Assembly (NCBI RefSeq): GCF_056712565.1
Contig: NZ_CM160072.1
DNA: 64,000 nucleotides
Direction: 5' to 3' (one strand)
Of this stretch, positions 60,403 through 63,400 are shown one piece after another. The position numbers and the translations under genes are program-made. Each line of letters starts with the position of its first letter. The stretch's first letter is position 1. The notes under the pieces were generated by a model. The model saw only the letters and a list, made by a program, of their open reading frames with translations, was not told the DNA's origin and ran no database searches.

Positions 60403-63400
60403 ATGGACGTCAGTCGCAGACAATTTTTTAAAATCTGCGCGGGCGGTATGGCGGGAACAACAGTAGCAGCATTGGGCTTTGCCCCGAAGCAAGCACTGGC
60501 TCAGGCGCGAAACTACAAATTATTACGCGCGAAAGAGATCCGTAACACCTGCACATACTGTTCCGTAGGTTGCGGGCTATTGATGTATAGCCTGGGTGAT
60601 GGCGCGAAAAACGCCAGAGAAGCGATTTATCACATTGAAGGTGACCCGGATCATCCGGTAAGCCGTGGTGCGCTGTGCCCGAAAGGGGCCGGTTTGCTGG
60701 ATTACGTCAACAGCGAAAACCGTCTGCGCTACCCGGAATATCGTGCGCCAGGTTCTGACAAATGGCAGCGCATTAGCTGGGAAGAAGCATTCTCCCGTAT
60801 TGCGAAGCTGATGAAAGCCGACCGTGACGCTAACTTTATTGAAAAGAACGAGCAGGGCGTAACGGTAAACCGTTGGCTTTCTACCGGTATGCTGTGTGCT
60901 TCCGGTGCCAGCAACGAAACCGGGATGCTGACTCAAAAATTTGCCCGCTCCCTCGGGATGCTGGCGGTAGACAACCAGGCGCGCGTCTGACACGGACCAA
61001 CGGTAGCAAGTCTTGCTCCAACATTTGGTCGCGGTGCGATGACCAACCACTGGGTGGATATCAAAAACGCTAACGTCGTAATGGTGATGGGCGGTAACGC
61101 TGCTGAAGCGCATCCCGTCGGTTTCCGCTGGGCGATGGAAGCGAAAAACAACAACGATGCAACCTTGATCGTTGTCGATCCCCGTTTTACGCGTACCGCT
61201 TCTGTGGCGGATATTTACGCACCTATTCGTTCCGGTACGGACATTACGTTCCTGTCTGGCGTTTTGCGCTACCTGATCGAAAACAACAAAATCAACGCCG
61301 AATACGTTAAGCATTACACCAACGCCAGCCTGCTGGTGCGTGATGATTTTGCTTTCGAAGACGGTCTGTTCAGCGGCTACGACGCTGAAAAACGTCAATA
61401 CGATAAGTCGTCCTGGAACTATCAGTTCGATGAAAACGGCTATGCGAAACGCGATGACACGCTGACTCATCCGCGCTGTGTATGGAACCTGCTGAAAGCG
61501 CACGTTTCCCGCTACACGCCGGACGTAGTAGAAAACATTTGCGGTACGCCAAAAGCCGACTTCCTGAAAGTGTGTGAAGTGCTGGCCTCCACCAGCGCAC
61601 CGGATCGCACAACCACCTTCCTGTACGCGCTGGGCTGGACGCAGCACACCGTGGGTGCGCAGAACATCCGTACGATGGCGATGATCCAGTTACTGCTCGG
61701 TAACATGGGTATGGCCGGTGGCGGCGTGAACGCATTGCGTGGTCACTCCAACATTCAGGGCCTGACTGACTTAGGCCTGCTCTCTACCAGCCTGCCAGGT
61801 TACCTGACGCTGCCGTCAGAAAAACAGGTTGATTTGCAGTCGTATCTGGAAGCGAACACGCCGAAAGCGACGCTGGCTGATCAGGTGAACTACTGGAGCA
61901 ACTATCCGAAGTTTTTCGTTAGCCTGATGAAATCTTTCTACGGCGATGCCGCGCAGAAAGAGAACAACTGGGGCTACGACTGGCTGCCGAAGTGGGACCA
62001 GACCTACGACGTCATCAAGTATTTCAACATGATGGATGAAGGTAAAGTCACCGGTTATTTCTGCCAGGGCTTTAACCCGGTTGCGTCCTTCCCGGACAAA
62101 AACAAAGTGGTGAGCTGCCTGAGCAAGCTGAAGTACATGGTGGTTATCGATCCGCTGGTGACTGAAACCTCTACCTTCTGGCAGAACCACGGCGAGTCGA
62201 ACGATGTCGATCCGGCATCTATTCAGACTGAAGTATTCCGTCTGCCTTCGACCTGCTTTGCTGAAGAAGATGGTTCTATCGCTAACTCCGGTCGCTGGTT
62301 GCAGTGGCACTGGAAAGGTCAGGACGCGCCGGGCGAAGCGCGTAACGACGGCGAAATTCTGGCGGGTATCTACCATCATCTGCGCGAGCTGTACCAGGCC
62401 GAAGGTGGTAAAGGCGTAGAACCGCTGATGAAGATGAGCTGGAACTACAAGCAGCCGCACGAACCGCAATCTGACGAAGTAGCTAAAGAGAACAACGGCT
62501 ATGCGCTGGAAGATCTCTATGATGCCAATGGCGTGCTGATTGCGAAGAAAGGTCAGTTGCTGAGTAGCTTTGCGCATCTGCGTGATGACGGTACAACCGC
62601 ATCGTCTTGCTGGATCTACACCGGTAGCTGGACAGAGCAGGGCAACCAGATGGCTAACCGCGATAACTCCGACCCGTCCGGTCTGGGGAATACGCTGGGA
62701 TGGGCCTGGGCGTGGCCGCTCAACCGTCGCGTACTCTACAACCGTGCTTCGGCGGATATCAACGGTAAACCGTGGGATCCGAAACGGATGCTGATCCAGT
62801 GGAACGGTAGCAAGTGGACGGGTAACGATATTCCGGACTTCGGCAATGCCGCACCGGGTACGCCAACCGGGCCGTTTATCATGCAGCCGGAAGGGATGGG
62901 ACGCCTGTTTGCCATCAACAAAATGGCGGAAGGTCCGTTCCCGGAACACTACGAGCCAATTGAAACGCCGCTGGGCACTAACCCGTTGCATCCGAACGTG
63001 GTGTCTAACCCGGTTGTTCGTCTGTATGAACAAGACGCGCTGCGGATGGGTAAAAAAGAGCAGTTCCCGTATGTGGGTACGACCTATCGTCTGACGGAGC
63101 ACTTCCACACCTGGACCAAGCACGCATTGCTCAACGCAATTGCTCAGCCGGAACAGTTTGTGGAAATCAGCGAAACGCTGGCGGCGGCGAAAGGCATTGC
63201 CAATGGCGATCGTGTCACTGTCTCCAGCAAGCGTGGCTTTATCCGCGCGGTGGCTGTGGTAACGCGCCGTCTGAAACCGCTGAATGTAAACGGTCAGCAG
63301 GTTGAAACGGTGGGTATTCCAATCCACTGGGGCTTTGAGGGTGTCGCGCGTAAAGGTTATATCGCTAACACTCTGACGCCGAATGTCGGTGATGCAAACT

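Follow-up and report, generated by a model that had tools for sequence, protein, structure and literature searches.

The locus described here raises a simple question: does an in-frame TGA mark the end of a gene, or is it a codon within one? In the window, as we call the whole 64-kb stretch of DNA that was analysed, a mechanical list of open reading frames holds two ORFs, 60403..60990 and 61039..63450, which lie on the plus strand in a common frame, and the first of them closes with a TGA (60988-60990). A preliminary description, made from the sequence alone, took the two ORFs to be split only by this TGA, identified the TGA as the selenocysteine (Sec) codon of formate dehydrogenase-N, denied that the gene was a pseudogene, and pointed to a short hairpin-capable segment, gcaagtcttgc (61006..61016), at the place where a SECIS element is expected. 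We find that the window carries at 60403..63450 an intact fdnG gene of Escherichia coli, and we put at about 98% the probability that its UGA codon 196 is recoded as Sec by way of a downstream SECIS and Sec-tRNA(Sec) delivered by SelB. The features of the locus are collected in Table 1.

Table 1. Features of the fdnG locus, in window coordinates
Feature	Position	Strand	Basis
fdnG CDS, formate dehydrogenase-N alpha subunit	60403..63450	+	single frame, RefSeq, 1kqf_A, TIGR01553
fdnG length: 1,015 codons including Sec196, plus stop codon	60403..63450	+	
Tat motif S-R-R-Q-F-F-K, FdnG residues 4-10	60412..60432	+	read off the translation
UGA codon 196, decoded as selenocysteine	60988..60990	+	sole internal stop; aligned with residue X of 1kqf_A
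SECIS element, full-length RF01989 (SECIS_3)	60985..61043	+	84.3 bits vs gathering score 63
Lower helix, 5' strand GACCAA	60995..61000	+	MFE pairing with 61025-61030; covariation of pair 12-45
Apical hairpin GGUAGCAAGUCUUGCUCC: 2 bp, bulged U, 5 bp, loop GUC	61002..61019	+	MFE, Rfam, covariation
Bulged U, +17 from the U of UGA	61004..61004	+	unpaired in Rfam structure and MFE fold
Apical loop GUC: G = +23, U = +24 from the U of UGA	61010..61012	+	Rfam structure, MFE fold
Lower helix, 3' strand UUGGUC	61025..61030	+	MFE pairing with 60995-61000; covariation of pair 12-45
fdnH (FDH-N beta subunit), next operon gene, cut by window end	63463..64000	+	RefSeq annotation of identical record

Translated in one frame, 60403..63450 runs to 1,016 codons, of which just two are stops, namely TGA as codon 196 and TAA at the end; nothing but the TGA divides the two ORFs, just as the preliminary description had it. 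The stretch of 48 nt that separates the listed ORFs (60991..61038) has no stop and codes for HGPTVASLAPTFGRGA; the start of the second ORF at 61039 comes from the ORF lister's choice of the first ATG, which alignment places at the internal Met212 of the protein chain in PDB entry 1KQF. The complete product, with X written at the TGA, aligned without gaps to that chain (1kqf_A, entitled 'formate dehydrogenase, nitrate-inducible, major subunit') over residues 1-1015, with 2394 bits and about five substitutions, and the crystallised protein has its non-standard residue exactly at TGA codon 196. This alignment to FdnG, which had been suggested as a check of the Sec reading, revealed no frameshift anywhere in fdnG, so that the outcome named in the preliminary description as its refutation did not appear. 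The product also matched the NCBIfam equivalog TIGR01553 at 1619.2 bits, against a cut-off of 814.2, with residues 2-1014 covered. Its translation carries near the start the motif S-R-R-Q-F-F-K, which we take to be the Tat export signal of the periplasmic catalytic subunit, and further on Cys50, Cys53, Cys57 and Cys92, the four residues described as ligands of the [4Fe-4S] cluster (PMC3636253).

The assignment to species and gene was equally direct at the DNA level. A 3.2-kb stretch of this locus agrees at 100% identity with several E. coli chromosomes, that of the type strain ATCC 11775 among them, and among complete genomes of the species 5,425 of 5,426 contain it. By BLAST, the whole 64-kb window matches the ATCC 11775 record, taken as its reverse complement, at 99.97% identity; the differences are 6 substitutions and one 11-bp indel, and fdnG itself is 100% identical. 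In the type-strain record a single non-pseudogene CDS, named fdnG and annotated as 'formate dehydrogenase-N subunit alpha', corresponds exactly to 60403..63450 of the window, with narZ, narU and yddG upstream and fdnH and fdnI downstream. The fdnGHI operon and its chromosomal surroundings match FdnG and set the gene apart from its paralog fdoG; each E. coli genome searched also gave a second match of lower identity, which would fit that paralog.

Sec has been placed at position 196 in both FdnG and FdoG; tandem mass spectrometry of FdnG detected Sec-196 and never Cys at that position, and in a selC mutant, without Sec-tRNA(Sec), translation of fdnG terminates at UGA 196 (PMC3636253). Both the presence of Sec at this codon and the truncation in selC mutants are thus results of the literature, and together with residue X of 1kqf_A the mass spectrometry confirms the earlier identification of the TGA as the Sec codon of formate dehydrogenase-N. 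The E. coli fdnG SECIS has also been drawn in a 2026 preprint. Within the 64-kb window no tRNA genes were detected by ARAGORN, and sel genes are absent from it as well. Since the window holds no tRNA, the decoding tRNA was checked at the level of the species, and a query with the E. coli selC sequence matched 5,424 of the 5,426 complete genomes, in which the matching gene carries the annotation tRNA-Sec. To our knowledge, E. coli has exactly three genes with a selenocysteine UGA, namely fdnG, fdoG and fdhF. In the 1KQF structure Sec196 presumably serves as a ligand to the molybdenum in the bis-MGD cofactor.

A SECIS prediction had also been proposed as a check, and it came out positive. The Rfam model RF01989 (SECIS_3) was matched over its entire length (model positions 1-59 of 59) by the segment that begins just before the TGA, well above the gathering score (Table 1), with an E-value of 2.2e-20 when a 1-kb region was searched and of 1.4e-18 for the whole window; this was the sole SECIS in the 64 kb. 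The 18-mer at 61002..61019 folds with ViennaRNA into a minimum free energy (MFE) structure, ((.(((((...))))))), of -4.5 kcal/mol, in which the pairs G61002-C61019 and G61003-C61018 are followed by the bulged U61004 and then by the pairing of A61005-A61009 with U61013-U61017, closed by the loop G61010-U61011-C61012. Both the Rfam consensus and the ViennaRNA MFE fold of all 59 nt contain the same apical pairs. The segment gcaagtcttgc does lie inside the SECIS and can contribute to a hairpin, as had been noticed, but it is only the apex of a larger, bulged hairpin; taken literally it implies a 5-bp stem closed by a loop of 1 nt, a structure that is not possible, and the correct reading of the palindrome adds an outermost A-U pair and leaves GUC as the loop.

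The apical hairpin begins 11 nt past the UGA. In the published geometry for SelB binding (PMC8659212), the 17-nt upper stem-loop stands at a distance of 11 nt from the UGA and is contacted by SelB at U17 and at G23, the latter being conserved in the loop along with U24; the fdnG element, with U17, G23 and U24 at 61004, 61010 and 61011, agrees with this arrangement. By analogy, we predict that the apical hairpin is the stem-loop to which SelB binds. At -17.4 kcal/mol (z = -0.77) the 59-nt element has an unexceptional folding energy, and 39 of 200 dinucleotide shuffles fold as well, so that what supports the SECIS is the profile of sequence and structure, together with covariation, rather than thermodynamics; the energy in itself neither supports nor refutes a SECIS.

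Homologs provide the covariation. We scanned one genome per species for the pattern TGH-CAY, 30 free bases, and then codons for FGRGAMT, which catches Sec and Cys homologs alike and leaves the hairpin region unconstrained. At the position of codon 196, 100 of the 117 homologs have TGA, and the remaining 17 have a Cys codon. The comparison set was made of 91 distinct Sec (TGA) and 17 distinct Cys (TGC or TGT) 59-mers from many phyla, and the pairs chosen for the test were 21-33 and 24-30 of the model, each formed in the apical stem by two third codon positions. Among the Sec sequences, pair 21-33 was paired in 81 of 91 (38.2 expected) and pair 24-30 in 76 of 91 (49.2 expected), and neither value was reached in any of 10,000 column permutations, tests that ignore relatedness, for which a slid-register control and the contrast with Cys homologs partly compensate. 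Pair 21-33 occurs in the Sec set in all four Watson-Crick forms (GC 47, CG 16, UA 11, AU 6). When the 3' partners were slid by 1-3 nt, a control that preserves the relatedness of the sequences, apical pairing in the Sec set fell from 92% in register to 31-53%. The Cys homologs, in contrast, had pairs 21-33 and 24-30 paired in 6/17 and 9/17, which is the level of chance, and their apical pairing in register was 55%.

The same analysis separates the constraint on the RNA from that on the peptide. Both pairs are formed in every one of the 60 distinct Sec sequences that encode V-A-[S/G]-L-A. The base at U24, a synonymous third position, is T in 90 of 91 Sec homologs compared with 4 of 17 Cys homologs, and the bulged U17 is U in 91/91 Sec homologs. 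Even a change of amino acids can be compensated in the RNA: where VASLA (GCC...GCC) is replaced by VSSLG (UCC...GGC), pair 22-32 is kept as U-G. Judged from these sequence comparisons, the apical structure is under selection as RNA, and this holds solely for homologs with a UGA codon.

The lower helix, which has been described as auxiliary (PMC8659212), presents a less uniform picture. In the window the Rfam register of this helix leaves two non-canonical pairs, A.G and A.C, and the MFE register is displaced by one nucleotide from the Rfam consensus. No covariation of the lower helix was found in the broad homolog set, pairs 15-42, 11-45 and 8-48 being at chance. Pair 60996/61029 (model 12-45), a synonymous pair of the MFE register, was paired in 15 of the 30 sequences of a proteobacterial subset against 6.8 expected, a value reached in 0 of 5,000 permutations that take no account of relatedness, and its pairs are of several kinds (AU 7, UA 4, GC 2, CG 1, GU 1). 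Lineages with GGCC...GGCC fit the Rfam register. We tentatively suggest, as a possibility somewhat less probable than its opposite, that the lower helix of fdnG-type SECIS elements adopts two alternative registers according to lineage, the helix being shifted by one nucleotide in E. coli and related lineages (GGA/GGU...GGU/GGA) and in the consensus register in the GGCC...GGCC lineages. If this were true, the curated SECIS_3 structure would need a minor correction, and the two registers might tune the efficiency of read-through.

Other explanations of the locus must be weighed against recoding. If the TGA were a nonsense mutation, fdnG would be a pseudogene or would have become two genes, with a downstream ORF that is either untranslated or started at ATG 61039, and the two entries in the mechanical ORF list, like the fact that translation does stop at UGA 196 in the absence of selC (PMC3636253), are what would be expected of it. 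This is, however, incompatible with the full-length selenoprotein known from the crystal structure and from mass spectrometry, since the crystallised FDH-N alpha chain runs through the TGA position with a non-standard residue there, and the reading is thereby refuted. Nor does the DNA itself resemble a decayed gene: the frame is intact in a stretch shared by 5,425 of 5,426 E. coli genomes, RefSeq gives the fdnG CDS no pseudogene flag, the TGA is kept in 100 of 117 homologs of many phyla and replaced in the rest by Cys, a chemically equivalent residue, the SECIS stands directly after the TGA codon, and ATG 61039 is an internal methionine (Met212) of the 1KQF chain. We regard a broken gene as having a negligible probability, and on this point the preliminary description was right. 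The tRNA-Trp of E. coli reads through UGA at a low level, and the window itself does not identify the residue inserted at UGA 196; a full-length product could in principle arise by read-through without Sec, for instance by suppression with a near-cognate Trp- or Cys-tRNA. That this is how codon 196 is decoded is extremely improbable, given that by tandem mass spectrometry Sec was found at 196 and Cys never, and that translation ends there in selC mutants (PMC3636253), that position 196 of 1kqf_A is a non-standard residue, and that a SECIS of the SelB type follows UGA 196 with its contact bases in place.

It might also be supposed that the hairpin after the TGA has no function as RNA and is a mere by-product of the conserved peptide HGPTVASLAPTFGRG. 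This peptide is indeed highly conserved, many bases of the stem occupy the first or second place in their codons, and the fold energy of the hairpin is not exceptional. Against this, the stem pairs at third positions co-vary through four Watson-Crick types and are formed in 60/60 sequences with the same peptide, the exchange of VASLA for VSSLG is compensated in the RNA by the U-G pair 22-32, and in Cys homologs with similar peptides both the stem pairing and the conserved synonymous U24 are lost. Pairing at synonymous sites that is specific to Sec homologs and absent from Cys homologs contradicts a coding by-product, which we consider very unlikely. The points that count against recoding through the SECIS are the fold energy (z = -0.77) and the lower helix, with its two non-canonical pairs in the Rfam register and its lack of covariation in the broad set.

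In the recoding reading, the events at this locus run as follows. The fdnG gene encodes the catalytic alpha subunit of formate dehydrogenase-N, a nitrate-inducible, periplasmic enzyme that contains molybdenum and selenium. The mRNA directly past UGA 196 folds into the SECIS, whose apical stem-loop at 61002..61019 exposes U17, G23 and U24. By analogy with the fdhF model system, SelB carrying GTP and Sec-tRNA(Sec), the product of selC, would bind this hairpin through U17 and G23/U24, and, again as for fdhF, would hand the Sec-tRNA(Sec) to the A site of the ribosome once the UGA has come into it, outcompeting release factor 2. The Sec196 so inserted would be an active-site residue beside the molybdenum cofactor.

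Comparison with known systems places the gene precisely. The fdnG gene of E. coli K-12, whose product is the protein of PDB 1KQF, has the same 1,015 residues, Sec196, the same context of yddG and fdnGHI and a full-length SECIS_3, and differs from the window gene by strain-level substitutions only, about five of them in the protein. The paralog fdoG, which encodes the alpha subunit of formate dehydrogenase-O, shares with it both the Sec of codon 196 and the architecture of the enzyme (PMC3636253), but its genomic context differs, the window gene adjoining yddG and narU/narZ and then fdnH/fdnI. The SECIS of fdhF (SECIS_2), which is the experimentally dissected model, shares the geometry of the window element, with a hairpin 11 nt past the UGA and with U17, G23 and U24. 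Its host enzyme FDH-H, however, is another protein, cytoplasmic and 715 residues long (1aa6_A), and when the window element is scored on SECIS_2 several pairs are mismatched; its apical stem is one bp longer and has a 3-nt GUC loop in place of the GGUC loop of the SECIS_2 consensus. Membership of the fdhF type (SECIS_2, RF01988) was rejected, the score being 28.8 bits against a gathering score of 70. Formate dehydrogenase alpha subunits of the Cys type, with TGC or TGT at this codon, share the motif C/U-H-x-x-[TS]-V...F-G-[RS]-G-A-M-T and its spacing with the Sec type, but are without a SECIS: their apical pairs are at chance (55%) and U24 is not conserved.

The Sec codon of fdnG and its SECIS are already known biology, and indeed a canonical case, so that present understanding is left as it was. 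Their value here is mainly one of annotation, in that a simple ORF caller breaks fdnG into pieces of 195 and 803 codons and might mark it as a pseudogene, and recognition of the UGA together with the SECIS restores one selenoprotein of 1,015 residues. The gene restored in this way is needed for formate-dependent nitrate respiration, and the analysis of its homologs provides a textbook illustration of RNA structure imposing selection at synonymous sites of a coding sequence.

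Over 64 kb, a single indel separates the window from the chromosome record of the E. coli type strain, ATCC 11775. At ~27073 the window lacks 11 bases of that record (inside ...GTTAAATGCTTTTTTACAG...), and the site falls within the remnant of a hicB antitoxin gene, annotated as N-terminally truncated. The only Rfam matches found in the 64-kb window were the SECIS of fdnG and the small RNA RydC, the latter scoring 90.5 bits where the family's gathering threshold is 48. Near RydC, the annotation places two gene remnants next to each other, one from a gene for a methyl-accepting chemotaxis protein and one from a Hok/Gef toxin gene; their coordinates were transferred from the type-strain record using an offset of +11.

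Features of the window other than fdnG
Feature	Position	Strand	Source or remark
RydC small RNA	12587..12650	-	Rfam RF00505, full-length match
Methyl-accepting chemotaxis protein gene remnant and Hok/Gef toxin gene remnant	~13067..13622		ATCC 11775 annotation
yncG, glutathione S-transferase family, frameshifted pseudogene	41920..42520		annotation of near-identical type-strain record
Orphan type VI secretion cluster and ISAs1 fragment	~43061..47610		mapped ATCC 11775 annotation
PAAR protein	43061-43345		mapped ATCC 11775 annotation
VgrG	43364-45769		mapped ATCC 11775 annotation
M35 peptidase	45759-46520		mapped ATCC 11775 annotation
Hypothetical genes	within ~43061..47610		part of type VI secretion cluster; mapped ATCC 11775 annotation
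ISAs1 transposase fragment	47467-47610		after type VI secretion genes; mapped ATCC 11775 annotation

The type VI secretion region, flanked in the mapped annotation by yncG and yddH, looks like a strain-variable island. According to the type-strain annotation the frame of yncG is truly disrupted, whereas that of fdnG is not. When 5,426 complete E. coli genomes were searched, the fdnG stretch was unmatched in one and selC, the gene for tRNA-Sec, in two; eight plasmid-borne fdnG-like places were also present in this collection.

Among the homologs, a separate group of Sec-codon formate dehydrogenase genes (loci L011, L024, L027, L049, L068, L072, L075, L083, L101, L103, L104 and L116) encodes V-[A/P/Q]-A-L-[A/G/S]-E-S, as in GUUGCGGCUCUGGCAGAGUCG. 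These genes fit the apical hairpin of the SECIS_3 model poorly, forming 1-5 of its 7 pairs, and their base at '+23', the loop position counted from the U of UGA, is C and not G. A different SECIS fold or register is probably used by this group.

In other homologs, the Ala-Ser-Leu-Ala beside the active-site Sec (GCC AGU CUG GCC) is replaced by Ser-Ser-Leu-Gly (UCC AGU YUG GGC), examples being loci L012, L039, L042, L047, L093 and L105. Under this replacement the apical stem pair between model positions 22 and 32 is kept, as U-G. The amino-acid replacements near the active-site Sec are thus compensatory at the RNA level and, since the stem pair is kept through them, the protein sequence at residues ~202-205 is shaped by the SECIS.
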